Position numbers and translations under genes: made by a program | Assembly: GCA_021811605.1 (NCBI GenBank) | Contig: JAJZNR010000024.1 | Coordinates: 37,751-101,750, forward strand | From: Candidatus Micrarchaeota archaeon | GTDB taxonomy: Archaea > Micrarchaeota > Micrarchaeia > Micrarchaeales > Micrarchaeaceae | Direction: 5' to 3' | Length of the DNA stretch: 64,000 nt | The notes under the pieces: model-generated | What the model was told of the DNA's origin: nothing | Seen by the model: only the letters and a program-made list of their open reading frames with translations | Database searches by the model: none | Shown: positions 12,598 through 54,651 of the stretch, in pieces | Layout of the letters: the number at the start of each line of letters is the position of its first letter | How positions within the stretch are numbered: position 1 is the first letter of the stretch

Positions 12598-13077
12598 ATG
12601 GCAAAATCTTACGTCAACTTTCAGGTATCGCAGGAAGTGGTAGCGAAGACAATGGAGGCTTTGCAGCTCGCAAAGCAGAACGGCACAGTGAAGAAGGGTG
12701 CTAACGAAGTAACGAAGAGCGTCGAGAGGGGACTGGCAACGTTCGTGGTCATAGCCGAGGACGTTGAGCCCGAGGAAGTGGTAGTCCACATCCCGAAGCT
12801 CTGCGACCAGAAGAAGATAGCATATTCATATCTGCCCACAAAAGCGGACGTTGGCAAGGCAATAGGCATGAATGTGCCGTGCGCCGCAGTAGCTGTAGAG
12901 AATCAGGGCGGCGCTGCAAACGCGATAAAAGATGTTCTATCCAGGGTAACCGGCAAGAGCGCATCCTCGGAGAAGAAGGCAGAGGCGAAGCCGGCAGCAG
13001 CGCCTAAAGCGGAGAAGAAGGAGGCTCCAAAGAAGGCAGCCCCGGCGCCGAAGCCTGCGGAGGCTCCAAAGCAGTAA
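12598..13077 (+). CDS. rpl7ae: 50S ribosomal protein L7Ae (eL8) with Ala/Lys/Pro-rich C-terminal tail
   Basis: 'KKGANEVTKSVERGLATFVVIAEDVEPEEVVVHIPKLCDQKKIAYSYLPTKADVGKAIG' is the L7Ae core. A 39-aa tail follows ('SASSEKKAEAKPAAAPKAEKKEAPKKAAPAPKPAEAPKQ'). An ATG lies at 12598, with GGTG 6 nt upstream. Confidence 0.92.
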   Translation: MAKSYVNFQVSQEVVAKTMEALQLAKQNGTVKKGANEVTKSVERGLATFVVIAEDVEPEEVVVHIPKLCDQKKIAYSYLPTKADVGKAIGMNVPCAAVAVENQGGAANAIKDVLSRVTGKSASSEKKAEAKPAAAPKAEKKEAPKKAAPAPKPAEAPKQ

Positions 13078-13106
13078 TCGTAATATATTAGTGATGATTG
13101 ATTCCC

Positions 13107-13349
13107 ATGGCAGACGAGCAGAAAGCTGAAGCCCCGATGTTCGCGGGATTCCTCGCGGAGATAGTCGAGATAAAGGAAGGCATCAAGACAGGCATCTACG
13201 GAGAGATATACACGGTATCGTGCAGGATTCTCGAAGGCAAGGACAAAGGACGAATAATCAGGAGGAACATGCTCGGACCGGCGAAGACCGGAGACATAAT
13301 AAGGCTTCCGGACACAAGCCGTGAGGCAAGGGAGATAAAGGTAAAGTAA
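13107..13349 (+). CDS. rps28e: 30S ribosomal protein S28e
   Basis: 'AEIVEIKEGIKTGIYGEIYTVSCRILEGKDKGRIIRRNMLGPAKTGDIIRLPDTSREAREI' matches the S28e pattern. It is part of the conserved L7Ae-S28e-L24e cluster. Confidence 0.9.
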   Translation: MADEQKAEAPMFAGFLAEIVEIKEGIKTGIYGEIYTVSCRILEGKDKGRIIRRNMLGPAKTGDIIRLPDTSREAREIKVK

Positions 13350-13372
13350 GCAAGTAAGGAAAGGTGCTTTTA

Positions 13373-13582
13373 ATGAAGTGCACAAACTGCGCGCGTGAAA
13401 TCGAGAAAGGCACCGGTATCATGTACGTCTACAGGACCGGAGATATCTCGTATTACTGCTCGAACAAGTGCATGAACAACCAGCTCTTCCTGAAGAGGCG
13501 AACCAACAGGAAGCTCGTAGTACAACCTTCCAAGTCCACCAGGGAAAAGATAAAAACGGCAGCGACCGCCGTCAAGAAGTAA
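13373..13582 (+). CDS. rpl24e: 50S ribosomal protein L24e
   Basis: 'MKCTNCAREIEKGTGIMYVYRTGDISYYCSNKC' is the L24e zinc-ribbon pattern. The ATG is at 13373, with an AAGGAAAGGTG Shine-Dalgarno-like stretch upstream. Confidence 0.9.
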   Translation: MKCTNCAREIEKGTGIMYVYRTGDISYYCSNKCMNNQLFLKRRTNRKLVVQPSKSTREKIKTAATAVKK

Positions 13583-13630
13583 TCCCCCGATTTGGAGATA
13601 AGGAAACGTTAAACCTAGAATAGTGAGTCA

Positions 13631-14338
13631 ATGACAGCCAGACCAGTCAATGTTGGAAATACTGTATACAGGCCTGTTCCGTTTCCGCGGTCCGGGCAGG
13701 GCACGCAGAGGCCCATGCCATCTCCGGAGACGGTCCCCCAGAGAGATAGCCGAGCAATGGCGAGAATAGAAGCCAACACCCTTGCAGCCCCGCAGCCAAA
13801 ACCGCATGTATCGGTAACTTATGCGGATAGCGGGAATCCGAACCAGCAGAGGTTCGCGGCTTCCCTCATGCCGCTCGCCAGCATGTATCTCAACGACAAC
13901 GATGTGTATCACTCCGGCCGTCTGCAGCCTTATCAGCAGAACACGCTCGACACCGCAGTCCTCGCCGCGTTAAGGAGTTTTCCGTTTGACATACGCTGGA
14001 ATTCCGGCGCAAACATAGTCGACACGAACGACTCCCTCAGGGTGGATGTGGGCCTGAGGAAGGACGGCGAGCATTACACCGAATCCATATCGGCTCGCAT
14101 AGTTACGGGATGGGACGAGGCTAAGGGAAAGTACTTCCTGAATGTGAAGTTCCAGGACGGCATTGGGAAGCGGACCAAACCATCAAGATGGACCGGGGCT
14201 CTCGTAAACAACATAGAGTCGACAATCTATCTCACGGAAAAAGAATTGGTGTCGCTCCTTCCAGACCCAAGCCCAAAACCACAAAAGCTTGGCAGCGCCG
14301 TCGAAAGGATTTTGAGAGGATTCGGCTTCAAGGCATAA
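13631..14338 (+). CDS. hypothetical protein
   Basis: 235-aa ORF filling the gap between L24e and ftsZ. No motif recognised. The start could be a later Met. Confidence 0.45.
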   Translation: MTARPVNVGNTVYRPVPFPRSGQGTQRPMPSPETVPQRDSRAMARIEANTLAAPQPKPHVSVTYADSGNPNQQRFAASLMPLASMYLNDNDVYHSGRLQPYQQNTLDTAVLAALRSFPFDIRWNSGANIVDTNDSLRVDVGLRKDGEHYTESISARIVTGWDEAKGKYFLNVKFQDGIGKRTKPSRWTGALVNNIESTIYLTEKELVSLLPDPSPKPQKLGSAVERILRGFGFKA

Positions 14339-15436
14339 TCAGCGCTTCCTGGTGAGCTCTTCCTCGAACACTTCGTCGAGGTCGACCTCCTGCACCTGCT
14401 GTATCTTCTTGGCCAGGCCCCTATCCGTGTACTCGGGGAACTCAACGCCGCTTACGACCAGCATGACCCTCAGGGCATCCTTCTGCATGTCCGTGTCGAT
14501 TCGTGCGCCCCACTTCAGCAGCGCGTCGCCGCTTATGCGGCCTGCGACTTCCTGGAACACCGATTCCGCCTCGCGCAGGGTCAGGCTCTCTCCGCCTATT
14601 ATGTTGACAAGCGCCTTCTTCGCAGTGCCGAGATCCGCGTCGAGCATAGGGCTCTTCACCGCGTTCTCCAGCGCCACTACCGCGCGGCTTGTGCCGTTCG
14701 AAGTCGCCATCCCCTCGCCGGAGCCGATTACCGCGTATCCGGAGTCCTTCAACACGCTTCGCAGGTCTGCAAAGTCGATGTTAACCATGCCGGGTTTTGT
14801 AACCATCTCCACTATGCCTTTTGTTGCACCGGCAAGCACCTCGTCGCTTACACGGAACGCCATATTGAGCGGGAGATCCGGCGCAACGCTCAGTAGCTTA
14901 TCATTGTGGATTATTATCACGGTGTCGGTAACCTTCTTAAGCTTCGCAAGCCCCTCAAGGGCGTTCTTCATCCTGCTCTTTCCTTCGCTTGAGAACGGCA
15001 AGGTCACTATAGCAACGCACAGCGCGCCCGCATCCCTGGCTGACGCCGCGATTGTAGACACAGAACCAGTGCCAGTCCCTCCGCCGAGTCCGCACGTAAC
15101 GAATACAAGCTGGGCATCGCCAATCATGTGCTTTATCTCGTCCTTGCTTTCGATAGCTGCCTCTTCGCCGACCCTGATGTCGCTTCCAGCTCCCAGTCCC
15201 TTAGTGAGTTTCTTCCCGAGCAGAAGCTTCCTTTCGGACTTCGTCTTCACAAGATGGGGGGCATCGGTATTCATCGCGATGAGCGTAGCTCCCTGAACCC
15301 CTATGCTGGCAAGCCTCGTTATCGTGTTGCTTCCAGACCCTCCGGTGCCGACAACGTAAATCTTCGGCTTCGCGCTCTCTATAAAACGCAGTATCTCTTC
15401 GTCGTCTGGACTCAATCCAGCTACCGCCGCTGCCAT
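14339..15436 (-). CDS. ftsZ: cell division GTPase FtsZ (tubulin family)
   Basis: 'IYVVGTGGSGSNTITRL', 'MNTDAPHL', 'GLGAGSDIRVGEEAA' and the tubulin signature 'GLGGGTGTG'. Confidence 0.9.
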   Translation of the reverse strand: MAAAVAGLSPDDEEILRFIESAKPKIYVVGTGGSGSNTITRLASIGVQGATLIAMNTDAPHLVKTKSERKLLLGKKLTKGLGAGSDIRVGEEAAIESKDEIKHMIGDAQLVFVTCGLGGGTGTGSVSTIAASARDAGALCVAIVTLPFSSEGKSRMKNALEGLAKLKKVTDTVIIIHNDKLLSVAPDLPLNMAFRVSDEVLAGATKGIVEMVTKPGMVNIDFADLRSVLKDSGYAVIGSGEGMATSNGTSRAVVALENAVKSPMLDADLGTAKKALVNIIGGESLTLREAESVFQEVAGRISGDALLKWGARIDTDMQKDALRVMLVVSGVEFPEYTDRGLAKKIQQVQEVDLDEVFEEELTRKR

Positions 15437-15554
15437 GTAACTACCTGTGGTCGCACTCCATTATCGCAGCATAAAGATAAAAAGGGATATGCAGCTTCGG
15501 GGAAGCGTCTCTACCTCATTAATATATCTTTTGCACAAAGAATAATGCGATTGC

Positions 15555-17371: not shown

Positions 17372-18256
17372 TCACGGCGGTGTGTATCCGCTCTCCCACG
17401 AGCTGCTGAACTGGACACCGTTGTATGTGTCCTGCCCATTGTAACCATTGCCGCTGTAATCATTAAGATTGCCATTCAGCGGCCACCATGCAACAAGATT
17501 CTGCGGGCGGATCGGCGCGCCGCCGATCCCTTCAAGATACAGCGACTGTATTTCGCTAGCCGAAAGGGAGGTATTGTACACCTGCACATTCGAGAGTTCG
17601 CCCTGGAAGTTGTACGTTCCACACTCGCCCGCGCCGACCCAATTCAAGTTATAGTTCACTATAGAACCTGTCATCGGAGCGATTGCGCCGCCAGAATCTG
17701 GCACACCATTAATCCATGTAGACACGTCAGTTCCGTTGTACCTACCTGTTACGAACGCCCACGTTCCGAGTGCAGGGTTGCTCGGCGAGAATGAACAAAG
17801 GGTGCTGGAGATGGTGTTAGAGGCGCAGAAATCCGGTCCTGTAGTGCCACGCATCGAAATGCTGAACGGGAGGCACTGCCCGGTGGAGGAATCGTAACCA
17901 CCTATAACCCCATAGTAACCGTCTGCCGGAGGTGTGCTGAGGAAAGACTGCGGAAAATAAACCCACATCGTCGTGGTTACCTGTGGGTACGACCAGTCGA
18001 GTCCCGTAAGCGTCATGAATCCCTGGCCGTTGAAATTTGCTACGAACTCCGGCAGCAGCCCGTTGCACTGCCCTTCCAAAGACACTCCCGCAACAGTCCT
18101 CGATACCTGGCACGCGCCTGCCTGCGCATGGGGCTGGAAGTTCCCCGAAGAGAATACGCCAAGCTGAAAGAGCACAGAGAGGACGACGGCAATGATGAGT
18201 ATCGCCCACCCGTATGTCATCAGGTATTCCATCGCGCTCTGCGACTTCAGCTCCAT
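17372..18256 (-). CDS. type IV pilin-like (class III signal peptide) protein with LamG/concanavalin-like domain
   Basis: N-terminus 'MELKS|QSAMEYLMTYGWAILIIAVVLSVLF' has a short basic leader, Glu at +5 and a hydrophobic helix. LamG-type motifs are 'TTTMWVYF', 'GTWAFVTGRYNG' and 'GELSNVQVYNTSLSASEIQSLY'. The C-terminus is 'LVAWWPLNGNLNDYSGNGYNG'. Confidence 0.7.
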   Translation of the reverse strand: MELKSQSAMEYLMTYGWAILIIAVVLSVLFQLGVFSSGNFQPHAQAGACQVSRTVAGVSLEGQCNGLLPEFVANFNGQGFMTLTGLDWSYPQVTTTMWVYFPQSFLSTPPADGYYGVIGGYDSSTGQCLPFSISMRGTTGPDFCASNTISSTLCSFSPSNPALGTWAFVTGRYNGTDVSTWINGVPDSGGAIAPMTGSIVNYNLNWVGAGECGTYNFQGELSNVQVYNTSLSASEIQSLYLEGIGGAPIRPQNLVAWWPLNGNLNDYSGNGYNGQDTYNGVQFSSSWESGYTPP

Positions 18257-18288
18257 GGTGGTCTATGGGAACAAGATATAAAAAGTCT

Positions 18289-19545
18289 TTATTCTGCGAG
18301 CTTAATCGTGTCCCCGACCTTCGGCGCGTACGCCTTTACTCCGTTCCCGTTGAGTATTTCAGCCAAACCGCTCGTCCCAGCCTCATCGCCGTGCACGCAC
18401 ACCACCACCTGCGCACCGCTTTTATCCACATACTCCATCAGGTCCGACATCCCCGCGTGGGCAGAGAAATCATGGAAGGTGTGCGGTGCATCAATGTGCT
18501 TCTTCATCCCCTCGTGCATTATGCAGCCGGTTTCCATGAGCATGCGTCCGTTCGTCCCCTCCTGCTGGAATCCGGTGAGGAAGATGTGCGACCTTCTACT
18601 GAGCTTTGTCACATAACTCAACACTGGTCCCCCGTTAAGCATCCCGGAAGTGGTCAGTATTATTGATGGCTGGTTCAGTGCCTCCTTCCTCATCTCCATG
18701 CCATCTACCCAGTTAACTTCCCTCACTGCCTTCTGCAGAGAGTCGGCGTGCTGTATGTAGCGCGGGTTGTTGAGCACTATCTGGGTAGCGTCCTTCGCCA
18801 TTCCATCTATGTAGGTCTGCGAGGCAAGGCCGTGCTTGTAGAGGAGCGCAAGTATCTCCTGGCTCCTTCCCACCGCAAACGCCGGGATCAGCGCAGTACC
18901 GCCGTTGTCCAGCGTCTCCTTTATCAGATCTATGAATTCTATCACTGTCTTGTCGCGGTCCGCATGTTCCCTGTTTGCATACGTGCTTTCCATGATGAGC
19001 ACGTCGCACTTCACTATCTCTGCGCCCTTGTGGAGGAACTGCTCCTCAAGCTTGAAGTCGCCCGTATATACTATGCGCCGATAATCCTTGGCCTGTGTCC
19101 TCTCCACCAGAGTTATCGAACTGCCGGCTATGTGCCCGGCATCGTACAGTTCGAAATCGAAGTTGCCGAAGTGGTTTGTATGATGGTAATCGGTAGCTAT
19201 GTACCTGTTCATCAGCTCCTTGACTTGATTCCTGCTGAAACCGGCTTTCTGGTGCTGCTTCTTCGCTATGCTCAGCGAGTCATCGAGCAGAAGGTTCGAG
19301 AGCCGCATGGTCGGAGGGGTGCCGAACGTAGGTATGAAGAGCTCCGAGTAAAGAGCCGGAGTAAACCCGCTGTGGTCCAAATGCGCATGGCTCAGTATCA
19401 GGGCATCGGCTCTCGGTATCGACGTGGGGTACTCTGTTTTATGGTCGATTTTCACCCCGTAATCGAACAGCAGGCTCCGGTCATCCTTTAGGAGAATCGC
19501 GGAGCGGCCGACTTCCTGCGCTCCGCCGTAGAACTTCAGTTGCAT
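18289..19545 (-). CDS. beta-CASP metallo-beta-lactamase ribonuclease (aCPSF2 / RNase J-like, no KH domains)
   Basis: 'FYGGAQEVGRSAILL' and the MBL motif 'LSHAHLDHSG'. The beta-CASP region includes 'ESTYANRE'. The C-terminal 'HGD' motif is present. I chose the start at Met9 (ATG 19543-19545). Confidence 0.85.
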   Translation of the reverse strand: MQLKFYGGAQEVGRSAILLKDDRSLLFDYGVKIDHKTEYPTSIPRADALILSHAHLDHSGFTPALYSELFIPTFGTPPTMRLSNLLLDDSLSIAKKQHQKAGFSRNQVKELMNRYIATDYHHTNHFGNFDFELYDAGHIAGSSITLVERTQAKDYRRIVYTGDFKLEEQFLHKGAEIVKCDVLIMESTYANREHADRDKTVIEFIDLIKETLDNGGTALIPAFAVGRSQEILALLYKHGLASQTYIDGMAKDATQIVLNNPRYIQHADSLQKAVREVNWVDGMEMRKEALNQPSIILTTSGMLNGGPVLSYVTKLSRRSHIFLTGFQQEGTNGRMLMETGCIMHEGMKKHIDAPHTFHDFSAHAGMSDLMEYVDKSGAQVVVCVHGDEAGTSGLAEILNGNGVKAYAPKVGDTIKLAE

Positions 19546-19612
19546 CAAAACACGACAGCTTAACTTCATCGAGAATGTATATAAAGATTAGGTTTCATGT
19601 ATAAGCGATTCT

Positions 19613-20419
19613 ATGTCTGACGATATCACGTTTACAGACCTAGCCGCGATTATCAAGATCAAGCCGGACACTACTGTGGAGAAGTACGGGGGTCTTATAA
19701 ATTCGTCGCTGTTCGACGCAGCGAATGTGCTCGGCACACTCAGCCAGAAGAAACTCATCAGTTTCACCACTGCAATGCCGGGTCAGAACCCCATCGTGCT
19801 CACAGAGGCGGGCAAGAACCTGATGGCAGAGGCTGACAGCCGCGCAGCCGGCGAGTTCGACCATCTTGACCTGACTATACTACAGCAGATGCAGAAGGGC
19901 ATGAACGCCCCTGCGGATATCGCGAAGGCGATAAACATAAGCCCTCGCGATCTTGCAATGCATCTGTACAAGATGATGAAACAGGGCTATTCGGCTTACG
20001 AGTTCAGGAGCGGCATAGTTACCGTAATGCTCACAGAGAAAGGATTCTCCCAGGCGAAGGCAGGTATGCCTCAGCCTTCGCAGCAGGGCGTGCCCGTTTC
20101 AGGACAGGCTACGCAAGCCACACAGCAGCAAACAGCTGCACCCACACAGGCAAACCCACAAACCATGGCATTCAAGCCCGCTCCGCAGCCGCAGGCCCAG
20201 TCGGCACCCAGTGTGCCTCCTCAAGTTCCTGCAACGGGACCAGGGGCAAGCCCGGCGCCGCCAGCCCCGGCCGCCGAACCTCCAAAGGAGATGACGCCTG
20301 AGCAGGTGGAGGGCATGATAAAAGAAAAGGCAAAGAAGACCCTGATGCTACGCATCGCTGTTCTCGCTGTGATAATAATCATAGGCGTAGTGATCCTGTA
20401 CCTGGAGGGGAAGCTCTAG
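19613..20419 (+). CDS. membrane-anchored protein with two putative winged-helix modules and a Gln/Pro-rich linker
   Basis: wHTH-like segment 'LTILQQMQKGMNAPADIAKAINISPRDLAMHLYKMMKQGYSAYE'. A low-complexity linker of about 70 aa follows. The single C-terminal TM is 'LMLRIAVLAVIIIIGVVILYL'. Confidence 0.55.
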   Translation: MSDDITFTDLAAIIKIKPDTTVEKYGGLINSSLFDAANVLGTLSQKKLISFTTAMPGQNPIVLTEAGKNLMAEADSRAAGEFDHLDLTILQQMQKGMNAPADIAKAINISPRDLAMHLYKMMKQGYSAYEFRSGIVTVMLTEKGFSQAKAGMPQPSQQGVPVSGQATQATQQQTAAPTQANPQTMAFKPAPQPQAQSAPSVPPQVPATGPGASPAPPAPAAEPPKEMTPEQVEGMIKEKAKKTLMLRIAVLAVIIIIGVVILYLEGKL

Positions 20420-20434
20420 GGGAAGCTCTGAATC

Positions 20435-21349
20435 TCACGGCACCGTATACCCGCCCTTCCACGCCGAGGTAAACAGCATATTCGAAGCAGCAGCTGTACC
20501 GTTCCATCCCTGGCCGCTGTAGTCGTTCGCGTTGCCGTTGAGCGGCCACCAGCCGACAAGATTATTGAGATTTATAGGCGCACCGCCTACACCCCTCAAG
20601 TAAAGCGAATTCATACCGTTCATCGACATAGTGGCATTGTAGATCTGCAGGTTGGCCAGATACCCGTTTATAAAGTTGCCATTTCCGTCAGAACCAAGGA
20701 TCATGTTCCCGGTTCCGCTTCCAAGCACCAGCGCAGATGTCCCAACACGACTGTAAGTTATGGAATTGCAGACCTGCGTAGACGCTCCTGTATAAACACA
20801 ACCCTCAGCGGAGGGTCCAATTCCAGGGAGGGGCGCCGTGTACGCTATAAAATACCACGTTCCAGTTACCACGTTCGCCGGAATTACCAGCGTACCGACG
20901 CTCGGAGGGCAGAGACACTGCGGAATTGTCTTATATGAAACCTGCACAGCGCCCAAACTTGTGATCGTTATATTGCCACAAGTTCCATATGGCACGTCTG
21001 TCCCGAGCAGCGGCGTAGTGGACTGCGGCAACGCGTTAAGCTTAAACCACATAGCCACAAAACCTCCAGAGTTGCGCTCGCCACAAGACTGGTAGATTTT
21101 GGCAGGGCCTGCTGTGCTTACCGAAGAGACGTATTGCGGCGGGAGCCCGCTGCATGTCCCTGCCAGCGATATGCCTGTCACTGTTCCGGGGCCCAAAGGA
21201 CGCACCACAGAGCAGCTTCCCGGCGCTGCTGAAGGCGGACCGATGTTGAACACCCCGAGCTCGGCCAGCACCGCCGCTGCGATGCCTATCAGCAGTATAG
21301 CCCATCCGTATGTAGTAAGATATTCTATAGCGCTCTGTGACTTTGGCAT
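20435..21349 (-). CDS. type IV pilin-like (class III signal peptide) protein with LamG-like domain, paralog of 17372-18256
   Basis: 'MPKS|QSAIEYLTTYGWAILLIGIAAAVLA'. 'GYLANLQIYNATMSMNGMNSLY' is followed by 'LVGWWPLNGNANDYSGQGWNG'. The architecture matches the other copy. I chose the start at Met7 (ATG 21347-21349). Confidence 0.7.
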   Translation of the reverse strand: MPKSQSAIEYLTTYGWAILLIGIAAAVLAELGVFNIGPPSAAPGSCSVVRPLGPGTVTGISLAGTCSGLPPQYVSSVSTAGPAKIYQSCGERNSGGFVAMWFKLNALPQSTTPLLGTDVPYGTCGNITITSLGAVQVSYKTIPQCLCPPSVGTLVIPANVVTGTWYFIAYTAPLPGIGPSAEGCVYTGASTQVCNSITYSRVGTSALVLGSGTGNMILGSDGNGNFINGYLANLQIYNATMSMNGMNSLYLRGVGGAPINLNNLVGWWPLNGNANDYSGQGWNGTAAASNMLFTSAWKGGYTVP

Positions 21350-21397
21350 GATAGAGTATAGCACCAAGGGATTAAAACCTATGCTGCCATTAGCTCT

Positions 21398-39676: not shown

Positions 39677-40718
39677 GTATCTTAGGCCGTTGAATTTTAT
39701 ATCAGTATCGTCTAATCACTTTTTTCTAATTTCTGATGCATCACTCCCACAATACCAATTCACGAGTATTTTATCACATACGCCAACAGACAGGCGTAGA
39801 TGTGGGCCACTACTTTTTCTATCCAACATATCTGTTCTTCGTAAATCCGAATACCTATTTTAGTCTAGAGACGATTCTTTCTATCGCCCATCTCTTCCCA
39901 TATCCCAGATCTTTTGGTATTTTTGATTTATAGTGCCCCTTCCATTTACTGCAATCACTGGTTTTACGTTGTCATGATAAGTTCCTGGTATATGTCTATT
40001 GAATCATATGCCGCATCTGCGAGAAATTTTGCTGTGTAATTTATAGTGAATCTTCTTTTCACAGCGTCATATAATTCATGGAAGAACTTCTTGTCGTTTC
40101 TGTTTTCAGGTGCGATTGAAAAGTACAATGGAAGTTATGTTTCTGCATCCGCGATCAATGTATTTTGTACCCTAATACGAACTCCTTCACAGCGCTTTTC
40201 TTCGTAAATTGTTCTTTTTTCGACCATGTTCTGTGCCCGAACCGCGCATCCGTATCCTTTTGCGAATGTGCTGATACATCACTGCTGTCCTGCGCCATCA
40301 ATCTGACTTGTTTTCATTTCATAGTCTGATCAATAACAAATTCATAAGTCTCCGGCATGATTTCATTCACATCTTTCCGCACCTTTAAAAAGATTGTGAA
40401 GTTGAAGCCCTTTCTATATCCCAAAATCTTTCCTATCGCATCATCTGAAAGAAATTCTGCAAGTTCTCTATCTGGTATCCCATTCTTGATCTGTTTACGA
40501 TTAATGCAACAATGTATTTGGCATATTTCCTCGTATGCCCATGTCCCTGTACCACAATTCTGGCGGCAGCCGGAACCACATGTATTTTATATTTTAGGTC
40601 GTTTATACCCATAAAAGTCTACTTGGACGCAGGGGATTTACGTCGAAGAGAAAAGAGAACCTGCGTTCTAGGTCTTACAGGAACGAAAGTATTTTAAGAA
40701 GCCAACAGCCTAAGTATC
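39677..40718 (-). mobile_element. degenerate IS element (IS4/IS5-type DDE transposase relic); boundaries tentative
   Basis: This AT-rich 1.1-kb stretch has no long ORF. A candidate imperfect terminal inverted repeat pairs GTATCTTAGGCCGTTGAATTT (39677-39697) with the reverse complement of 40698-40718, GATACTTAGGCTGTTGGCTTC. That is 15/21 matches with the core CTTAGGC(C/T)GTTG. No target-site duplication is evident. Confidence 0.45.
39712..40612 (-). pseudogene. DDE transposase pseudogene (multiple in-frame stops and at least one frameshift)
   Basis: My minus-strand translation gives '..GIPDRELAEFLSDDAIGKILGYRKGFNFTIFLKVRKDVNEIMPETYEFVIDQ..'. A second segment reads '..TFAKGYGCAVRAQNMVEKRT..VQNTLIADAET*LPLYFSIAPENRNDKKFFHELYDAVKRRFTINYTAKFLADAAYDSIDITRNLS*QRKTSDCSKWKGHYKSKIPKDLGYGKRWAIERIVSRLK*VFGFTKNRYVG*KKVVAHIYACLLAYVIKY'. 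The ADAAYDS and RWAIER blocks are typical DDE_Tnp_1 motifs. Confidence 0.7.
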
Positions 40719-40722
40719 CCGT

Positions 40723-41496
40723 ATGGCGCGTTCTGACGAAATAAGTGCAAGAAGGACTTACGACAAAATAGCGGAGCGTTATCACAACGCAAGAGCGAAT
40801 AAAGTACTGTTTTTCAACGAATTCCTCGAAATGCCGGCTACTTTATCGTTGCTTCCAAAATTAAAAGGCAAGAAAGTATTAGACATTGGATGCGGCTCTG
40901 GCATTTATGCCACAAAACTAAAACAAAAGGGGGCACGCGTGTGCGGTGTAGACATATCTCCCAGGATGATTTCAATCGCAAAACAGGAAGTTAGTGGTGT
41001 GGATTTCAAGGTCGGGAGCGTATACAAATTGCCCTATCTTAACAAGAGCTTTGATATTGCAGTTGCGCCTCTCGTAATCGATTACGTTACCGATATAGAC
41101 AGAGCACTGTACGAAGTGAACCGTGTTCTGCGTGACAATGGGTCACTCATCTTCTCGCTGCCGAATCCGGTAACACAATCCACAGAACGGCTGCACAAGG
41201 GCAGGGTGGCTGAAACTTCAAGGGTATTCCACGACTATTTCAAGGAAGGAATGAGGAAGCAGTTATGGAATTATGATAGAAAATCACTTGGGCGAAAACG
41301 TGTATCCGTTTCAACGATGCATATTACTTACCAGACCCTGATACAATCTATCTTAAGAAACGGATTTGTAATCGAGGACTATATCGACGTTTACCCTATT
41401 TCAGCAGGGAAGAAGTCGGATCCAAAGGCCTATGCGCTTACATCAAAGGTTCCGTGGTTTTGTGCATTCAGGGTTAGGAAGACAAACGACCGTTAA
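40723..41496 (+). CDS. class I SAM-dependent methyltransferase
   Basis: SAM-binding motif I is 'KVLDIGCGSGIYATKL', the post-I acidic residue is in 'VCGVDISPRM', and motif II/III is 'FDIAVAPLVIDYV'. The DNA is low in GC (23/60 G+C at 40861-40920). Confidence 0.8.
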   Translation: MARSDEISARRTYDKIAERYHNARANKVLFFNEFLEMPATLSLLPKLKGKKVLDIGCGSGIYATKLKQKGARVCGVDISPRMISIAKQEVSGVDFKVGSVYKLPYLNKSFDIAVAPLVIDYVTDIDRALYEVNRVLRDNGSLIFSLPNPVTQSTERLHKGRVAETSRVFHDYFKEGMRKQLWNYDRKSLGRKRVSVSTMHITYQTLIQSILRNGFVIEDYIDVYPISAGKKSDPKAYALTSKVPWFCAFRVRKTNDR

Positions 41497-42042
41497 CTAG
41501 GGCACTTGCACCCGAACTGTGATACCGTTGGAAAATACAAAACACTCTCCATCGTGCTCCACTATGCCTATTGCGATTACCCCGCGCAACAAAGATCCAT
41601 ACTGCGCCGCTCTAAACCGCCCCCCAAAGTTCTCATTTATGGCAAGGTTTTTCACTATCTGTGGCGAAAAGTACTGTGAAACATGCGTCATCCTTCCTGT
41701 GTCATCGAAGAATATGAAGCCATCATGAAGTTTGTTATCCGAGCCACTTATACGAAGGAGCTCCTCAATGCACCCTTTAGTACCAAGCGATATGTCTTCT
41801 GGACAGGATGCCGAAGGTCTTAAATCTGAATGGTTTTCGTCAGAAAGCGAGCCACGCCTATATACGAGTATTCCAATTCCACTGAATCTCGAGTCCCGCA
41901 TTGTAGCTATCCCTTTCAGCGTGTGTTCGAGCTGCTCTACCAGTTGACCATCTGATTTTGGTGAAATGGGAGCCGTAGCTGCAATCCCAATAGCAGCGAT
42001 TGCGGGTGTTGTCCTTACATTATGCATAGCGCTAACCATCAA
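41497..42042 (-). CDS. DAC (DisA_N / diadenylate cyclase)-like domain protein with substituted catalytic motifs
   Basis: Four blocks are collinear with the DisA_N pattern. 'SGIGILVYRR' corresponds to GALIVIER. 'ELLRISGSDNKLHDGFIFF' corresponds to ..PLHDGAVII. 'FGGRFRAAQYGS' corresponds to LGTRHRAALGLS. 'AIGIVEHDGECFVFSNG' corresponds to VIVVSEETGxISLAxxG. HDG-to-RxR spacing is about 35 aa. DGA is replaced by DGF and RHR by RFR. Confidence 0.45.
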   Translation of the reverse strand: MMVSAMHNVRTTPAIAAIGIAATAPISPKSDGQLVEQLEHTLKGIATMRDSRFSGIGILVYRRGSLSDENHSDLRPSASCPEDISLGTKGCIEELLRISGSDNKLHDGFIFFDDTGRMTHVSQYFSPQIVKNLAINENFGGRFRAAQYGSLLRGVIAIGIVEHDGECFVFSNGITVRVQVP

Positions 42043-42046
42043 ACCA

Positions 42047-43306
42047 TCATATTCTCTGCTCGTTCAGCTCCTTTCCGTCGTACGTGAAATACCACAGCGA
42101 TCTGTAGTTCTGCCAGGTTTCTGGTCTTAATCCCGTGCCCCTGAATGCGTCCTCAACTATCTTCCTTGCGTCTAAGTAGTACTTCAAGTTTACAGCTTCC
42201 GGAGTCCTGATGCCCTTCTGCTCCTCCCAGTGCGGCTGGAATATCTGTATCATCGGGAACCTTGTGACCTCGCCTGCAAACCTCTCCATGCCTTCAGCGA
42301 TGTCCTTGAGCGGATCAAGACCGACTATGTATGTGAAGCCTCCCTCGATGCCCATGTCCTTTGTCTTTCTTAGCAAATCCACCGCACCATCTAACGTCAG
42401 AGCAGCCTTCTCCGGCCTCATTATCTTGTTTCTCCTCGTAAATGCCTCCAATGTCAAGGCGAAATATGGCCTGTCAACCTCTTCTCGGACTTTCTTCAAT
42501 GCGGCTTCGGAGCGTATCTCTCCGCCTATATACAGCAGTGTGCCCTTGAATCCATGCGCCTTGAAGTACCTATTCACCATTAGGAGGTCTGCGAGTGCGG
42601 CCTCCTCGCTGCCAAAACAACCGGTTACCAGAGTCAACTGGTGCAGGTTCGAAAAGCTATTTGCACTAGGTGTCATGGTCGGCCTATGGAAGTGCGGCCT
42701 CACTGCGGCTAGCTCCTCAGATGTCCCAAATAGCCTACTCACATAAGCCTCAAGCTGTTCGGGAGTTTTTATCTGATCCTGGTCCGTGGCTACCTGTCTA
42801 AGTGTTGCACAGAATGCACATCCGGAGCAGGTGCTTCTAGAATTAGTGTTAAGTACAAGGACAGTGTCGTTCCTTCTGAAGTATGAAGTGTCGCAAGTAT
42901 CGTTTTCAAAGTCTATAACAGCAGCAAACTCCTTACCGTTAAAGTAGAGCTTTTTCTCCGTACTTGAACCGTGAAATGGGGTGTTCGTCTTGAGGACTGG
43001 TATGCCTAAGTAGAATATATCATCAGGTCGGCTCGACAGTGCTATTTTGAACCGGACTCTCCTCAACGGAAGGTCGGTCGTCATGGCGCTTGCATTAAGT
43101 GCAATAAGCTCCACATCTTCGCGCATAATCCCATATTCTTTTGACAGCGCTTCAATGTTGTCAATCTCTCGTAGAACTGGCAGCTTTGTACCAACCTGTG
43201 CAGAATCTGCTGGCACCTCTCTTGCTTGTGATACGGGTTGCTTTTCTCCTCTTCGGACGGAAGTCACACTTGTCGTAACTCCACTACGTTCCCTCCCTAC
43301 GGGCAT
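42047..43306 (-). CDS. radical-SAM-like TIM-barrel enzyme (BioB/ThiH/CofH-like pattern) with non-canonical CX2CX2C triad and a 130-aa N-terminal extension
   Basis: 'VLVLNTNSRSTCSGCAFCAT' has Cys160/163/166, encoded at 42809-42829. Later blocks 'LTLVTGCFG', 'LLYIGGE', 'LTLEAFTRRNKIMRPEKA' and 'GIEGGFTYIVGLDP' resemble the radical-SAM core order. Only 4 nt separate it from the downstream DAC-like gene. Confidence 0.55.
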   Translation of the reverse strand: MPVGRERSGVTTSVTSVRRGEKQPVSQAREVPADSAQVGTKLPVLREIDNIEALSKEYGIMREDVELIALNASAMTTDLPLRRVRFKIALSSRPDDIFYLGIPVLKTNTPFHGSSTEKKLYFNGKEFAAVIDFENDTCDTSYFRRNDTVLVLNTNSRSTCSGCAFCATLRQVATDQDQIKTPEQLEAYVSRLFGTSEELAAVRPHFHRPTMTPSANSFSNLHQLTLVTGCFGSEEAALADLLMVNRYFKAHGFKGTLLYIGGEIRSEAALKKVREEVDRPYFALTLEAFTRRNKIMRPEKAALTLDGAVDLLRKTKDMGIEGGFTYIVGLDPLKDIAEGMERFAGEVTRFPMIQIFQPHWEEQKGIRTPEAVNLKYYLDARKIVEDAFRGTGLRPETWQNYRSLWYFTYDGKELNEQRI

Positions 43307-43421
43307 AAAATCTCCACGATAGGTTCCTATTCGTTATATTATTTAAACTTTACTTCACCTACGTTCAATGTACTTTTTGATTTCAACCATGCAAAATCCC
43401 TATCAGAAACGGTCGATTTTC

Positions 43422-43586
43422 ATGAAGAGGCTATTACTTACTTCTACCGGGTTCAATAATCCCAACATTGAGGAGAAATGCACCGAGATACTTAGAGGAG
43501 TCAAATCAAACTCACAGAGCACGATAATTACTGTTGGATTCCTGAAAAGAACCTGTTGGACTATAGCATGGCGCACGAAATGCTAA
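43422..43586 (+). pseudogene. possible truncated remnant of a peptidase S51 (dipeptidase E)-like gene
   Basis: 'MKRLLLTSTGFNNPNIEEK' resembles S51 N-termini, but the ORF ends after about 55 aa in AT-rich DNA. This is weak evidence. Confidence 0.2.
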
Positions 43587-43673
43587 GCCAGCTCAAGAAC
43601 ACGTTCAAGTTGCTCTCCTAGCATCCTCACTAATTTTATATCTTGCCATCCATCTCTCACAGAACGTGAGCGC

Positions 43674-44996
43674 ATGCCGATGGATAACAAGCTCTTTGGA
43701 ATAGAGGACATAGTGCTGAAGCAGCTGGTGGGCAAGTTTGTTTCTGTAACTGACGACAACAAGAGACGCGAGATGATATTCAGCGCAGCCAGGGCTGCAA
43801 ACAAGGACCTCAAAACAGAGGAAGTCGAATCGATAATCCAGGACGTCAACGATATCGGCCCGATAGCCCCGTTCATAGAAAGCGAGGATACGGAGGACAT
43901 AATGGTAAACAACACCGGCAATATATTCGTATTCGACACCAAGCTCGGGAACAAGAAGCTCGATGCGCGGTACGATACCTTGGAGAAGCTGCAGAGACTG
44001 GTGGCAAAGCTGAAGCTGTTCGCGACTAACCAGGCTGCGACAGGCAACATAATGGACGTCCACCTCCCGAACGGAAGCAGGTGCAACATAGTTTACAGCC
44101 CTCTCGGAAGCGACATCACGATAAGGAATTTCAAGAAACGGCCTATGAGCGTCATAGACCTGATAAACAATAGGACGATGGACTACAAGATAGCAGCCAG
44201 GCTGTGGCTCTATACCGACGGCTTCAAGATCCGCCCGGCGAACATCATAATAGGAGGCGTGCCAGCTGCGGGAAAGACTACACTGCTCAACGCGATGTTC
44301 TCTTTCTTCCGGCCGGAACAGAGGATAGTGACTATAGAAGAGACCTACGAGCTCGATACCGGCACCCAGGAGAACACGGCAAGGCTGGAGACCAGCACCG
44401 ACCTTACCATGCTCGATTTGGTGAAGAACGCGCTGAGGATGAGACCAGACCTCCTTGTAATCGGGGAGGTGCGCGGATCGGAGGCTAACGACATGATAAG
44501 CGCCATGAACATAGGTAAGATAGGGATGACAACTATACACGGAAGCACCACAAGGGAGATTGTCACGAGGCTGGAGCACTCCCCTATGAATGTGCCGCGT
44601 GATCTGATTCCGGCAATAGATGCGTTGATGATAGTCACGCCAGTGAGGGAGCCGGACGGAATGCACAGGAGGATAACCCAGATTTCCGAGATATCAGGGA
44701 TAGAGACGCAGATTCTCCTTTCGGACATCTACAAATACGATTACAGGACGCACCAGTCCGCGCCAATCATGCCGAGCGTTACTTACAGGGACATACTCTC
44801 AAAGCTGCTAGGGCTTGCACCTACCGACATACTCGCTGAGGAGGTAGTGAGGGCGAGGATATTGGAGCAGCTTAACAAGCTCGGCCTGAGGGATATGAAG
44901 TCGGTAAGCCAGGCAGTAAAGGAGTACTACGATAACCCGGAGCAGCTGCTCAAGAAGATAGGGCTGCAGCAGCTCGCGCCTGCGATTAAGGTCTAG
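43674..44996 (+). CDS. type II/IV secretion-family ATPase (archaeal pilus/archaellum assembly ATPase, PilB/FlaI/TadA-like)
   Basis: Walker A is 'IIGGVPAAGKTTLLNAM', the Asp box 'IVTIEETYEL', Walker B 'RPDLLVIGEVRG' and the His box 'GMTTIHGS'. Confidence 0.88.
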   Translation: MPMDNKLFGIEDIVLKQLVGKFVSVTDDNKRREMIFSAARAANKDLKTEEVESIIQDVNDIGPIAPFIESEDTEDIMVNNTGNIFVFDTKLGNKKLDARYDTLEKLQRLVAKLKLFATNQAATGNIMDVHLPNGSRCNIVYSPLGSDITIRNFKKRPMSVIDLINNRTMDYKIAARLWLYTDGFKIRPANIIIGGVPAAGKTTLLNAMFSFFRPEQRIVTIEETYELDTGTQENTARLETSTDLTMLDLVKNALRMRPDLLVIGEVRGSEANDMISAMNIGKIGMTTIHGSTTREIVTRLEHSPMNVPRDLIPAIDALMIVTPVREPDGMHRRITQISEISGIETQILLSDIYKYDYRTHQSAPIMPSVTYRDILSKLLGLAPTDILAEEVVRARILEQLNKLGLRDMKSVSQAVKEYYDNPEQLLKKIGLQQLAPAIKV

Positions 44997-52066: not shown

Positions 52067-53359
52067 TCACAGCGCGCGAAGCGCGTCTATTGGCTCGAGC
52101 CTGGACGCCCTCCACGCCGGATATACTCCCGCAAGTATGCTCACCACCACAGCCACAAGCATTGCCTCGACTATCGTCAACCCGCTCACCACGGGGGTGT
52201 AGCTTATCGATGAGCTGCTCGGGCTTCCCGACGAGCCGCCGAAGGTAGTCGCCCTGCCGCCGCCGAAGCGTGCGCCCCCTCCTGAACCTCCCGACCCCGC
52301 TGTCCCATTCGATGCTGCCGGACCGGATCCTGCGGCAGAAAGAACCGCGCTAAGCCCGTACGAGCCTCCGATGCCGAACACAACGCCTATCACTCCACCC
52401 AAGAAGCCGATTATTATAGCCTGCATCAGGAAGAGCGTGAGCACGTCCCTGTTCCTGAATCCCAGAGACTTGAAAATCCCTATCTCGTGCGTCCGCTCAT
52501 ACACTGAAATCAGCATTATGTTCATTATCCCTATCGCGGCGACCACCAGCGAGATTCCGGCGATAACGCCAAGCAGCAGTCCTATAGACCCTATCACCTG
52601 CTCAACCTCCTGGGTGAGCTGCTGCGTGCTGATAACGCGCGCATTGTTTCCATAGATGTCGCCTATCTGGGTGGCCAGCGCTCCAGTCGCCGCGGTGCTG
52701 TTCGCTTTGACTATTATCTCGGTAAAAGACTGTCTCTGCAATATGGACTCCGCGGCCTGCAGCGGCATGAATACGGAAGTGTCCGGCGACACCAGGAACG
52801 AGGTTCCGTACTTCTTCAGCATCCCGACCACCGGCACCGTGTACGTGCCTCCCTTCTCTGTCTTGATCGTTATCGGCTGCCCTACAAACGCATACTGCGT
52901 TCCGGAAGTGCCGGGGTATGCCACGCTGTACCCTATCACGGTCTCTGGGTTCACCCCGTTCGTGTAGAGCTGCCCCTGTATAAAGGTAAGGTTGCCTATC
53001 AGCTGGTCTGCGTTCTCCGCTGCAACACCTATCAGGTCAGCGCTGACATTCTGCCCGTCCGTATAGATGTTGACGCTCCCGGTGACAAGCGGTATGACCG
53101 CGCTGGTGTTAGGCAGCGATCCGAGCAGGGAGGTGTCCGCGTAGGTGAACACCGTTCCGGGCGCAGGCGTAATTATTATCGATGTGGGGCCAAGCGAGCT
53201 CAATGCCGAAGAGACGCTTGCGCTTATCCCTGCGGTCTGCGATATGAGCGCGATTATCGATGCGACCCCTATGACGACCATGATTACGGTCAGCGCTGTC
53301 CTTATCCTCTTCTCCCCCAAGTCCGTAAAGGCGAGCCAGAAGACATCTTTGTAGTTCAT
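52067..53359 (-). CDS. ABC transporter permease, MacB/FtsX family
   Basis: N-terminal TM 'RTALTVIMVVIGVASIIALI', then a large extracytoplasmic domain. The C-terminal FtsX domain includes 'ERTHEIGIFKSLGFRNRDVLTLFLMQAIIIG' and 'AGVYPAWRASRLEPIDALR'. Confidence 0.85.
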   Translation of the reverse strand: MNYKDVFWLAFTDLGEKRIRTALTVIMVVIGVASIIALISQTAGISASVSSALSSLGPTSIIITPAPGTVFTYADTSLLGSLPNTSAVIPLVTGSVNIYTDGQNVSADLIGVAAENADQLIGNLTFIQGQLYTNGVNPETVIGYSVAYPGTSGTQYAFVGQPITIKTEKGGTYTVPVVGMLKKYGTSFLVSPDTSVFMPLQAAESILQRQSFTEIIVKANSTAATGALATQIGDIYGNNARVISTQQLTQEVEQVIGSIGLLLGVIAGISLVVAAIGIMNIMLISVYERTHEIGIFKSLGFRNRDVLTLFLMQAIIIGFLGGVIGVVFGIGGSYGLSAVLSAAGSGPAASNGTAGSGGSGGGARFGGGRATTFGGSSGSPSSSSISYTPVVSGLTIVEAMLVAVVVSILAGVYPAWRASRLEPIDALRAL

Positions 53360-54651
53360 TTGCCGTGCCCCTTCTTTCTTTCCCTGTAATACATGTAGCC
53401 GAGCACCACTACAACGATGACCAGCACCAGGTCCACCACTGCTCCGCCTCCACCTCCGGTGTGCACCACAGCGCCGCTTCCCGGCTGCGACCCTGATAGC
53501 GCGGATGCCGCTGCCACTACGGTCACCGGTACCATCATAGTCGAGCTTTCGTTGTTCCTGAAGTTGTCAAGGTAGCTCACCCTGACCGGTATCTGGTACG
53601 TCCCCGGCTTCGTGAGGTTGTCAGTCTGGAACGTCAGCGTGACCGGCGCCTGCGCCTCCGCCGCTATGCTGCCCACGAACTCCGAGCCCGAGCCGTAGGG
53701 CCTGAAGCCGTTGGACCCCTGCGAAGACACGGTTACCGTGGACGCGCCGCTTGTCCCGGTGTCGGTAAGTACGAACGATATCGAGAATATCTCCCCCGGA
53801 GTCACCGGAGACGGCGACACCGTGACAGAGGAATCCGACAGGTTTATCAGCCCCTGCGAGAGCGTCTGCTTGTAGGATGCGGCCTGCATGAACTGTCCGC
53901 TGCCGTTGTAGAAGTCTGCAGTCACGTTGAGCGGGAACGAAAGCGATGCGTTCTTGCCAACGAATACCGTGTCGTTGAGCGTTGCACTGGCTCCCGGAGC
54001 CAGCTCCCCGAGGTCAAGCGGTATCTGCGTAAGTTGCGATAAATCCGATGACGGGGCATATACGCTCACCGATATGTCCCTCAGCGCAGTCTGCCCGGAA
54101 TTGTGCAGCCCGATACCGATGGTCTGTACCTCTCCCGATGTCAGTATGGCCGGAGATACGTTGAGCGTGAGCGGAAGCTTGCACTGCACAGCGCTGAACG
54201 ACAGGTTTCTCTCCTCCTGGTCCTCCGCATAAGTGTAGTAGAAGTAGTTAATGCCTATGCCGAGAGTGTCCGTCGCAGACGCGTTCTGCGGCACGAACCA
54301 CGCCAGGTAGGCCGTGTTGCTGCTCAGCGGGTTGACCGTGCCCATCACCGCCGTGCTGTTCCATGCAAAGTAGGTGTTTTTCGTGTTTTGCACGGTGAGC
54401 TCTACATTAATCATCGCCGGTCCGTATGAATTGAGCTCGCTGGGATTTATGGTGCCCGGCTCTCCATTGTTCCACACCGTTATGGGCACGTAGTTTACCT
54501 GCCCCCTGCACACGGTGGTGGCGTTGGAGCTCACCGCGAAGTTCGGCGGCGGAGGGTAGTTGGTGTTCGCGGACGTCCCTGCGAACGTCATTGCCGGCGC
54601 CGCTAGCGACAGCAGCAGCGCCAGCATCAAGATCTCCACAACAGTTTTCAT
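53356..54651 (-). CDS. secreted, C-terminally membrane-anchored protein with CARDB-like Ig-fold repeats (COG1361-like)
   Basis: Signal peptide 'MKTVVEILMLALLLSLAAPAMTFA'. Repeated beta-rich modules, for example 'SPAILTSGEVQTIGIGLHNSGQTALRDISVSV..LGELAPGASATL'. Many N-x-S/T sites. The C-terminal TM plus basic tail is 'VVDLVLVIVVVVLGYMYYRERKKGHGK'. It overlaps both ABC genes by 4 nt. Confidence 0.6.
   Translation of the reverse strand: MKTVVEILMLALLLSLAAPAMTFAGTSANTNYPPPPNFAVSSNATTVCRGQVNYVPITVWNNGEPGTINPSELNSYGPAMINVELTVQNTKNTYFAWNSTAVMGTVNPLSSNTAYLAWFVPQNASATDTLGIGINYFYYTYAEDQEERNLSFSAVQCKLPLTLNVSPAILTSGEVQTIGIGLHNSGQTALRDISVSVYAPSSDLSQLTQIPLDLGELAPGASATLNDTVFVGKNASLSFPLNVTADFYNGSGQFMQAASYKQTLSQGLINLSDSSVTVSPSPVTPGEIFSISFVLTDTGTSGASTVTVSSQGSNGFRPYGSGSEFVGSIAAEAQAPVTLTFQTDNLTKPGTYQIPVRVSYLDNFRNNESSTMMVPVTVVAAASALSGSQPGSGAVVHTGGGGGAVVDLVLVIVVVVLGYMYYRERKKGHGK

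Follow-up and report, generated by a model that had tools for sequence, protein, structure and literature searches.

Introduction

In bacteria, pilins are known onto which concanavalin-like or PF13385 modules have been grafted; one of them, PilC of Streptococcus sanguinis, binds glycans (PMC8179133, PMC9934059). In haloarchaea, TafC, the tip subunit of the Tat-fimbriae, contains a laminin G-like domain that has been proposed as an adhesin (PMC11821415). In the micrarchaeon Mia14 and other DPANN archaea, an expansion of laminin G-like (LamG) jelly-roll proteins, partly near type IV pili loci, was described and a role in host contact was proposed; Mia14 has one FlaK-like prepilin peptidase, and pili-like connections between cells of archaeal Richmond Mine acidophilic nanoorganisms (ARMAN) and their hosts have been recorded (Golyshina et al. 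2017, PMC5498576). Here, we describe two genes, P1 and P2, in a 64,000-nucleotide stretch of a Candidatus Micrarchaeota archaeon (contig JAJZNR010000024.1, positions 37,751 to 101,750; hereafter the window), the products of which join a class III-type signal peptide and a pilin-like helix to a LamG body with a shifted strand order.

A life in attachment to host cells is common to Micrarchaeota and other DPANN archaea, and few of the molecules by which they recognise the host are known. On Micrarchaeota pilins, or LamG proteins that carry a class III signal peptide, the literature offered just a general remark (PMC5498576): pilins and LamG are unmentioned in two papers on Candidatus Micrarchaeum harzensis, the co-culture paper (PMC8975820) makes no mention of pili, and LamG, DPANN, and ARMAN are not mentioned by Makarova et al. 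(2016, PMC4858521). A preliminary description of the window, made from the DNA letters alone, had read P1 and P2 as paralogous pilin-LamG fusions with a circularly permuted LamG domain. We propose that P1 and P2 are probably secreted and serve as archaeal subunits of the type IV pilin kind with a LamG head in pentraxin strand order, which we consider the best explanation of the evidence as a whole. They belong to a very large archaeal pilin-type family that is new in having such a head, and the permutation itself is neither unprecedented nor specific to the pilin fusion. The LamG-like expansion of Mia14 is probably this same gene family.

Results

Two Paralogous Proteins with a Pilin-Type N-Terminus and a LamG Body

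P1 (17372..18256, minus strand) encodes 294 aa, and P2 (20435..21349, minus strand) encodes 304 aa when read from the ATG at 21349, with an alternative in-frame TTG at 21367, 18 nt upstream. The two open reading frames (ORFs) proved to be paralogs, as had been described, with 36% identity in BLASTP (E=3e-47). Gene conversion between them was considered and rejected, as the DNA alignment contained no long identical tracts; synonymous differences were spread throughout the conserved ends, which places the conservation of these ends at the protein level.

The N-terminus translated as MELKS|QSAMEYLMTYGWAILIIAVVL in P1 and as MPKS|QSAIEYLTTYGWAILLIGIAA in P2. After the short leader, both proteins share Q-S-A-[MI]-E-Y-L-x-T-Y-G-W-A-I-L, and the class III-type site in both is [KR]-[SA]|Q-S-A-x-E-Y. 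Both leaders have the class III character, being short and charged, with K/R and then a small residue ahead of a hydrophobic stretch of about 20 residues (MELKS|QSAMEYLMTYGWAILIIAVVLSVLF in P1, MPKS|QSAIEYL in P2). In P1, the leader MELKS with its putative prepilin-peptidase site K-S|Q occupies 18242..18256 (minus strand), and the hydrophobic helix alpha1 (residues 6-31, with Q+1 and E+5; modelled as helix 8-31) occupies 18164..18241 (minus strand); the mature N-terminus and alpha1 of P2 (QSAIEYLTTYGWAILLIGIAAAVL...) lie at 21260..21337 (minus strand), with the hydrophobic segment at residues 10-30. Each protein has a single hydrophobic segment, at the N-terminus. Among the homologs, [KR][SA] preceded Q in about 180 of 207; conservation began at -2/-1 and extended over Q+1 and E+5 into a helix some 25 residues long, and the leaders upstream of [KR][SA] were unconserved, with lengths of 3-63 aa. 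The helix is followed in P1 by a beta-hairpin (residues 46-65; 18062..18121, minus strand; strands 49-54 and 57-62 in the AlphaFold model), which is closed by Cys49 and Cys64, both invariant in 99 family sequences (P1 numbering).

The LamG/concanavalin-like body of P1 comprises residues 82-237 (17546..18013, minus strand), as delimited by PF13385 and PDB profile matches, and is the hypervariable part of the family. It matched positions 8-151 of the 151-position Laminin_G_3 profile (PF13385) with E=1e-12 and 49 bits, over the cutoff of 27.6, whereas P2, for all its homology to P1, matched with residues 98-242 under the cutoff (E=9e-4, 19.9 bits). The profile was matched at E<=0.1 by 98 of the 99 family members. 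LamG, pentraxin, and toxin Hc-N domains were the PDB profile matches of P1, and Foldseek assigned its AlphaFold model (mean predicted local distance difference test, pLDDT, 86; predicted template modelling score, pTM, 0.83) with probability 1.0 to pentraxin, PAPP-A LamG, and toxin Hc-N domains. In this model, the LamG body is preceded by alpha1 (8-31), a linker, and the hairpin, and by no separate globular domain. The conservation of [KR][SA]|Q, the modelled helix, and the Laminin_G_3 match thus bear out the class III signal peptide with Glu at +5, the hydrophobic helix, and the LamG body of the preliminary description. As a separate observation, the canonical LamG_3 motif Y-N-R-A-L-S is replaced by Y-N-T-S-L-S in P1 (residues 226-232, in the region of 17546-17600) and in the family consensus. 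This gives a near-invariant N-x-S/T sequon in the last core strand, with Y227 and N228 invariant, which may be an N-glycosylation site.

Strand Order of the C-Terminal Tail

Both proteins end in a conserved tail. In P1, it covers residues 243-294 (17375..17530, minus strand) and consists, according to the AlphaFold strands and a tail hidden Markov model (HMM), of a linker, the strand LVAWWPLN (hereafter the W-strand), a DYSGNGxNG loop, a terminal hairpin, and ...GYTPP before the stop. The W-strand (residues 253-260; 17477..17500, minus strand) begins 12 aa past the helix, so that the order in P1 is last core strand and helix ('NVQVYNTSLSASEIQSLY'), a 12-residue linker, 'LVAWWPLNGNLNDYSGNGYNG', 20 further residues, and the stop. 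P2 is built alike, with the tail at 20438..20593 (minus strand), the W-strand LVGWWPLN at 20537-20560, and the succession of pilin N-terminus, body, and tail also recovered by HMM; the tail motif common to both is 'LVxWWPLNGNxNDYSGxG'. The translations therefore agree with the earlier statement that the two motifs of LamG domains stand in reversed order in both copies and that the proteins end about 20 aa later.

In ordinary LamG proteins, the W-strand had been said to come first, and two proteins from outside the family confirmed this. In P0250 (3157 aa) and P0348 (2976 aa), every canonical LamG run opens with a strand of the form 'L-V-x-Y-[YW]-P-[LF]-N', which precedes the first body by about 40 residues, and the last body of each run has no W-strand after it. 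In the solved LamG_3 structure 4qvs_A (227 aa), the body is at chain residues 53-219, and a weak D-Y-x-G-N match is at 22-35, ahead of it. This canonical register, with W-strand and DxSGNGxxG before the body, was absent from the family: no tail-HMM match lay N-terminal to the body in the 136 locus ORFs and 231 database proteins of complete architecture (see below). The envelope of PF13385, suggested earlier as a check on the permutation, was a single collinear match (8-151 of 151); it is uninformative on this point because the profile contains no W-strand.

The modelled tail is ordered. Residues 240-294 have a pLDDT of 83-95 and form strands 254-258, 274-277, and 281-284 after a helix at 233-242. 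We compared the Foldseek scores of the full model with those of a deletion model of residues 46-245, from which alpha1 was removed together with the tail. The core of the deletion model was still confident, and the pLDDT of the N-terminal hairpin fell from 86-94 to 50-54, which suggests that in the modelled fold this hairpin packs against the removed alpha1/tail parts. Against pentraxin domains, the full model aligned over 233-245 columns with a target-normalised TM-score (TMt) of 0.61-0.74, and the tail-less model over 178-196 columns with a TMt of 0.51-0.60; the TMt decreased from 0.74 to 0.60 for 8pvq, from 0.70 to 0.57 for 3flp_A, from 0.68 to 0.56 for 9k6n_B, and from 0.69 to 0.58 for 7zl1_A. 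Deletion of the tail thus cost 45-55 aligned columns and 0.07-0.21 of TM-score, which corresponds to some 25-28 residue-equivalents; in pentraxins, the part past the helix measures about 28-30 residues. For the clostridial toxin Hc targets, whose chain departs from the jelly roll once the helix is complete, the TM-score only changed from 0.31 to 0.29. In the structures of the pentraxins SAP and CRP, the strands after the helix belong to the sandwich.

The pentraxin order was also visible at the profile level. The Pfam Pentaxin profile aligned collinearly from the body through the W-strand, up to profile position 187-188 of 194; its cutoff of 25 bits was passed by three family members, P0017 (29.6), P0040 (26.6), and P0070 (26.5), and 36 of the 99 matched it at E<=0.1. 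The match of P1 (residues 214-266 to profile positions 141-188, 15.2 bits) was below the cutoff, and P2 gave no match. When a tail-only profile was compared with PDB sequences, the last strand and helix matched CRP, and the W-strand matched nothing. These results indicated that the unit of body and tail is circularly permuted relative to LamG_3 and collinear with the pentraxins; the claim of a circular permutation therefore stands with respect to LamG_3, but the resulting order is not without precedent. In the tandem LamG protein at 12765-15476 of locus L002, a W-strand ahead of a terminal body was matched by the tail HMM (E=6e-7), and W-strands number roughly one per body among the homologs. 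From the strand homology, this approximate one-to-one relation, and the pentraxin superposition, the tail would take the exact slot of the canonical N-terminal strand.

Size and Architecture of the Family

A search with P1 retrieved 3394 homologs at E<=1e-3 among 90%-identity clusters; the 120 matches listed were 265-326 aa long, and the few that were named were called 'LamG domain-containing protein' and came from Candidatus Micrarchaeota. The search with P2 led to the same family (723 homologs, best non-self match 44% identity), and P1 matched 702 of 1.84 billion 50%-identity representatives at E<=1e-30. At least 556 family copies were found in GTDB species genomes, and the 80 that were kept all came from Micrarchaeota metagenome-assembled genomes (MAGs), except for two loci in one MAG labelled Marsarchaeota. 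The members with this label (L011 and L043 on JAMCYP01 contigs, and P0132, P0162, P0165, and P0213) suggest a mislabel, a binning error, or a transfer. The genes stand singly among housekeeping genes or in tandem arrays of up to 8 per 20 kb.

HMMs of the N-terminus (residues 4-45), body (46-242), and tail (243-294) were run on all ORFs of 76 loci and the window. The complete succession of pilin N-terminus, body, and tail was found in 136 of the 158 ORFs with any HMM match, and in 135 of these 136 the tail match ended 0-3 residues from the C-terminus. Among database proteins, 231 of 233 had the complete succession, all 233 had the tail (231 of them a single one), and 232 ended within one residue of the tail's end. 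The survey of homologs that had been called for thus found the tail to be terminal throughout the family. One protein, P0095 (321 aa), contains an internal tandem duplication of the segment from helix to W-strand ('...LVGWWPLNGNAN-EIQTLYQEGIGGVPIDLQHLVGWWPLNGNANDYSG...'). Conservation was very uneven: the mean frequency of the majority residue was highest in the N-terminal helix (0.94) and at residues 243-274 (0.90), lower at 46-77 (0.74) and in the last core strand with its helix (0.71), and lowest at 78-215 (0.27).

The Body-Plus-Tail Unit in Larger Proteins

Moving the strand to the C-terminus had been explained as a way to free the N-terminus for the pilin helix. The larger proteins do not bear this out: units of a body followed by a W-strand occur both internally and terminally in Micrarchaeota proteins of 620-1340 aa. 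In P0253 (623 aa), a pilin N-terminus, body, and tail are followed by an unrelated spacer domain and by a second hairpin, body, and tail at the protein end, and at 16132-18384 of L002, one body with its tail stands behind about 500 residues of non-LamG sequence. In many of the pilin-like proteins of about 1100 aa with four LamG bodies, a W-strand stands 12 residues past every body, the last being a minimal 'P-L-S-W-L-P' before the stop. Thus, the strand order would not be an adaptation to the pilin helix, and the shifted register characterises a Micrarchaeota LamG clade as a whole.

The proteins of about 1100 aa form a second pilin-like family with the N-terminus QIALEYMIVFSF (P0234, P0236, P0240, P0252, P0278, and others, and the ORF at L002:12765-15476). 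Their layout is a domain of about 130 aa, body 1, W-strand, a spacer of about 100 aa, W-strand, body 2, W-strand, body 3, W-strand, and body 4, with 'PLSWLP' and the stop after it in many. The region L002:10001-20852 carries a small LamG-pilin gene followed by genes for three large proteins (903, 750, and >826 aa), in all of which LamG bodies follow a pilin-like N-terminus; the locus has the appearance of a set of major and minor subunits.

These proteins bear on a different reading of the tail, namely that the C-terminal 50 residues are the vestigial, linker-like stub of a lost second LamG domain and lie outside the sandwich of the first. Along its entire length, the tail is indeed homologous to the stretch that separates the domains of tandem LamG proteins in this phylum, the protein breaks off at the point where another body would follow, and in canonical domains the loop and hairpin beyond the W-strand lie N-terminal to the body that follows. 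A stub, however, would hardly be at least as conserved as any other part of the protein, with a fixed end, in thousands of copies, and it would leave the LamG-pilin body without a W-strand of its own. The confidence of the model in the tail and the dependence of the pentraxin superposition on it likewise speak against disorder or a stub. A second LamG domain in homologs, which was to count for a stub, was in fact found in P0253, but it consists of a complete body and tail and is set off by an unrelated spacer, as would be expected of a permuted unit that is autonomous; in addition, the four-body proteins keep a minimal W-strand at +12 after their last body. We consider the stub highly improbable.

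Genomic Context and a Possible Link to Pili

A FlaI/PilB-like type IV filament ATPase, a candidate for the assembly motor, is encoded in the window at 43674..44996 (plus strand; Pfam T2SSE, E=1e-29). Its best NCBIfam match was FlaI, with 222 bits and below the cutoff, and it also matched BasE (E=1e-30) and TadA. The ATPase is conserved among Micrarchaeota MAGs. In 3 of the 76 loci, orthologs of this ATPase (E=1e-157 to 1e-194) abut LamG-pilin genes (L004:10859-12175, L014:14450-15775, and L043:5143-6459), and no platform protein gene stands beside the ATPase in these three. Small ORFs of 160-250 aa with the pilin N-terminus lie near LamG-pilin genes and ATPase orthologs. Eleven ORFs share this N-terminus but lack a LamG body (for example, L014:17277-17822, L043:4572-5063, and L067:10910-11464); their lengths are 95-349 aa, with eight of the eleven at 163-254 aa, and they are candidates for conventional pilins of the LamG-pilin system. 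In addition, related N-termini (QIALEYMIVFSF..., of the QIALEY type) head large surface proteins in the genomes and loci of the LamG-pilins.

Several observations weigh against the pilus interpretation proposed above. No pilin or class III signal model of Pfam or NCBIfam matched whole P1 or P2, and none matched their first 44-47 residues at E up to 10; the N-terminal 47 aa gave no meaningful match to PDB sequences and none to a solved pilin. Among the ORFs of the window that were scanned, there was neither a prepilin peptidase nor a platform protein, and the window ATPase is 22 kb from P1 and P2. We therefore infer, rather than observe, the cleavage of the leader by a prepilin peptidase and the assembly of the subunits. 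No ligand-binding residues are conserved in the body, and a lectin activity is thus conjectured from the fold. In the four-body proteins, the W-strands number five, with the additional strand behind the spacer, and a rule of one W-strand per body is thus inexact. Contact between tail and body would follow from model confidence values and TM-score differences, and the decrease in hairpin confidence cannot be assigned to the tail alone because alpha1 was deleted too. Finally, no expression, proteomic, or microscopy data on the family were found in the literature.

The lack of pilin-model matches and of a peptidase among the scanned ORFs, together with the single N-terminal membrane helix, would also fit an uncleaved signal anchor, in which case P1 and P2 would have no relationship to type IV filaments and would be LamG lectins of the type II membrane-tethered kind. 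A plain anchor, however, needs no invariant Q-S-A-M-E-Y...G-W directly after [KR][SA] behind unconserved leaders of such different lengths, nor would it account for the QIALEY-type motif at the head of other surface proteins in LamG-pilin loci or for the adjacency of the ATPase to LamG-pilin genes. We regard the anchor as very unlikely. Somewhat less remote, though still unlikely, is that the class III signal is genuine and that P1 and P2 form short pseudopilus-like or 'bindosome'-like surface assemblies, comparable with the sugar-binding proteins of Sulfolobus and their BasE ATPase. The BasE match of the window ATPase, besides FlaI and TadA, points in this direction, as do the ligand-binding fold, the large size of the LamG-pilins for pilins, and the scattering of their genes among housekeeping genes outside pilus operons. 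Nevertheless, the extreme conservation of alpha1 and of the face formed by hairpin and tail fits packing in a common polymer; small pilin-like ORFs and the large pilin-like proteins with related N-termini co-occur with them in the manner of major and minor pilins; and pili-like connections between ARMAN cells and hosts have been reported (PMC5498576).

P1 and P2 flank two other genes, as had been stated. The first encodes a beta-CASP metallo-beta-lactamase nuclease (18289..19569, minus strand; Pfam Beta-Casp, RMMBL, and Lactamase_B; NCBIfam aCPSF1-like with 275 bits, below the cutoff), and the second a membrane-tethered protein with weak winged helix-turn-helix (HTH) matches (E~0.01), a Pro/Gln/Ala-rich linker, and one C-terminal membrane helix at residues 239-268 (19613..20419, plus strand). 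The stop of the beta-CASP gene is separated from the start of P1 by 32 bp (18257-18288) on the same strand, and the order of a beta-CASP gene and then a LamG-pilin gene recurs in L018; co-transcription of the two is therefore possible. A functional link of the pilins to the beta-CASP and HTH genes was rejected, and we regard the arrangement as a neighbourhood: synteny of the genes for beta-CASP, the HTH-membrane protein, and the acetyl-CoA synthetase (ADP-forming)-like protein is conserved in L004 and L018, the pilin copies around these genes vary in place, and the position of P2 was seen in the window only. Another paralog, P0064, adjoins pheT and a radical SAM gene, which is uninformative.

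Elsewhere, the window carries archaeal housekeeping genes for SMC, topoisomerase VI A, LonB, and the signal recognition particle receptor and, judging from the translations, for FtsZ-like, deoxyhypusine synthase-like, and polyprenyl synthase-like proteins. Positions 40001-44000 have a G+C fraction of 0.44-0.48, compared with about 0.53-0.58 elsewhere; they contain genes for a methyltransferase, a DAC-domain protein, and an unknown ORF of 419 aa, as well as the start of the ATPase gene, and in comparison with L004 they form an insertion that separates FtsY from the ATPase. Three genes at 52067-55352 (minus strand) encode, in this order, an ABC ATPase lookalike (ORF 54648-55352), a secreted CARDB/NPCBM_assoc-domain protein, and a MacB/FtsX-type permease.

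Discussion

Our results point to the following scheme for P1, P2, and their relatives. The short leader would be cut after [KR]-[SA] by a prepilin peptidase, and the mature helix, with Q+1, E+5, and about 25 hydrophobic residues, would anchor the subunit in the membrane and then pack in the core of a filament built by the FlaI/PilB-like ATPase. About 15 residues past the helix, the disulfide-closed hairpin would run directly into the concanavalin/LamG jelly roll, and after the last core strand and helix, the 'LVxWWPL' strand, its loop, and the small terminal hairpin would complete the sandwich beside the N-terminal hairpin. Helix, hairpin, and tail may thereby form a conserved face near the filament axis, with the hypervariable middle 140 residues directed outward. 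The many paralogs per genome would give Micrarchaeota a repertoire of surface heads, probably glycan-binding, for contact with host cells; pilus assembly and lectin activity are both presumed in this scheme.

A tandem array that was duplicated and truncated would be the simplest source of the permuted unit. Such an origin is plausible because the tail is homologous over its full length to the segment between bodies and because the protein ends at the point at which a further body would begin.

More tentatively, the small LamG-pilins might be the major repeating subunits of a pilus coated over its whole surface with lectin-like heads. With an invariant helix and an invariant face of hairpin and tail, but with almost completely different exposed 140 residues, the paralogs (up to 8 in tandem) would then be exchangeable and would fix or change the host surface glycans that the symbiont can bind. 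We hold this to be rather doubtful, although less so than the bindosome-like assemblies; if true, pilin variation systems would have an archaeal equivalent that uses a LamG fold in pentraxin order. The LamG-pilins are one of the largest paralog expansions in the small genomes of Micrarchaeota and are essentially unannotated beyond 'LamG domain-containing protein'. If they are pilus subunits with variable lectin-like heads, they would be a concrete and testable candidate for host recognition and may aid attachment. The family also offers a natural example of a register change in a jelly roll, as canonical, permuted, and tandem forms occur among the retrieved homologs; the Pfam LamG_3 model hides this difference in register by omitting the mobile strand.

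With respect to fold, the pentraxins (PF00354; CRP, SAP, PTX3) are the nearest to the LamG-pilins. They gave the best structural matches (TMt 0.68-0.74), they have, on the evidence of the model, the same strand order including the strands after the single helix, and their Pfam profile aligned collinearly through the W-strand. However, P1 and P2 lack the pentraxin signature H-x-C-x-[ST]-W-x-[ST], and P1 has in addition the DYSGNGxNG loop, the terminal hairpin, and the N-terminal pilin helix; for the cyclic oligomers and calcium sites of pentraxins, there was no evidence in the LamG-pilins. Canonical Laminin_G_3 proteins (4qvs; the arrays of P0250 and P0348) share the homologous body, the W-strand, and the DxSGNGxxG loop, but place strand and loop about 40 aa before the body, whereas the LamG-pilins have the strand 12 aa past the helix and none ahead. 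TafC (NCBIfam NF052521) resembles them as an archaeal filament subunit with a LamG-like domain and gave weak matches to P1 (E=0.007) and to P0234 (E=6e-21); it differs in being exported by the Tat pathway, in assembling by donor-strand exchange, and in being a single tip protein, and its profile stops after the helix, with no tail.

The modular type IV pilins exemplified by PilC of S. sanguinis, with its ConA-like lectin module, and by the pilin-PF13385 architecture (Raynaud et al. 2021, PMC8179133; PMC9934059) resemble the LamG-pilins in combining a class III signal, alpha1, and a concanavalin/LamG module for which glycan binding is presumed or shown; in both, an adhesive module would be grafted onto a subunit of a filament. 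The LamG-pilins are archaeal, however, and their Q+1 N-terminus is missed by the bacterial IPR012902-type motif and by any Pfam or NCBIfam model. Modular pilins in the sense of Raynaud et al. require a complete pilin module, whereas the LamG-pilins have no globular pilin module, the LamG part beginning about 15 residues past the helix, and they carry the W-strand at the C-terminus. Finally, whereas PilC is a single tip pilin of low abundance, the LamG-pilins are present as many paralogs per genome with a hypervariable body.

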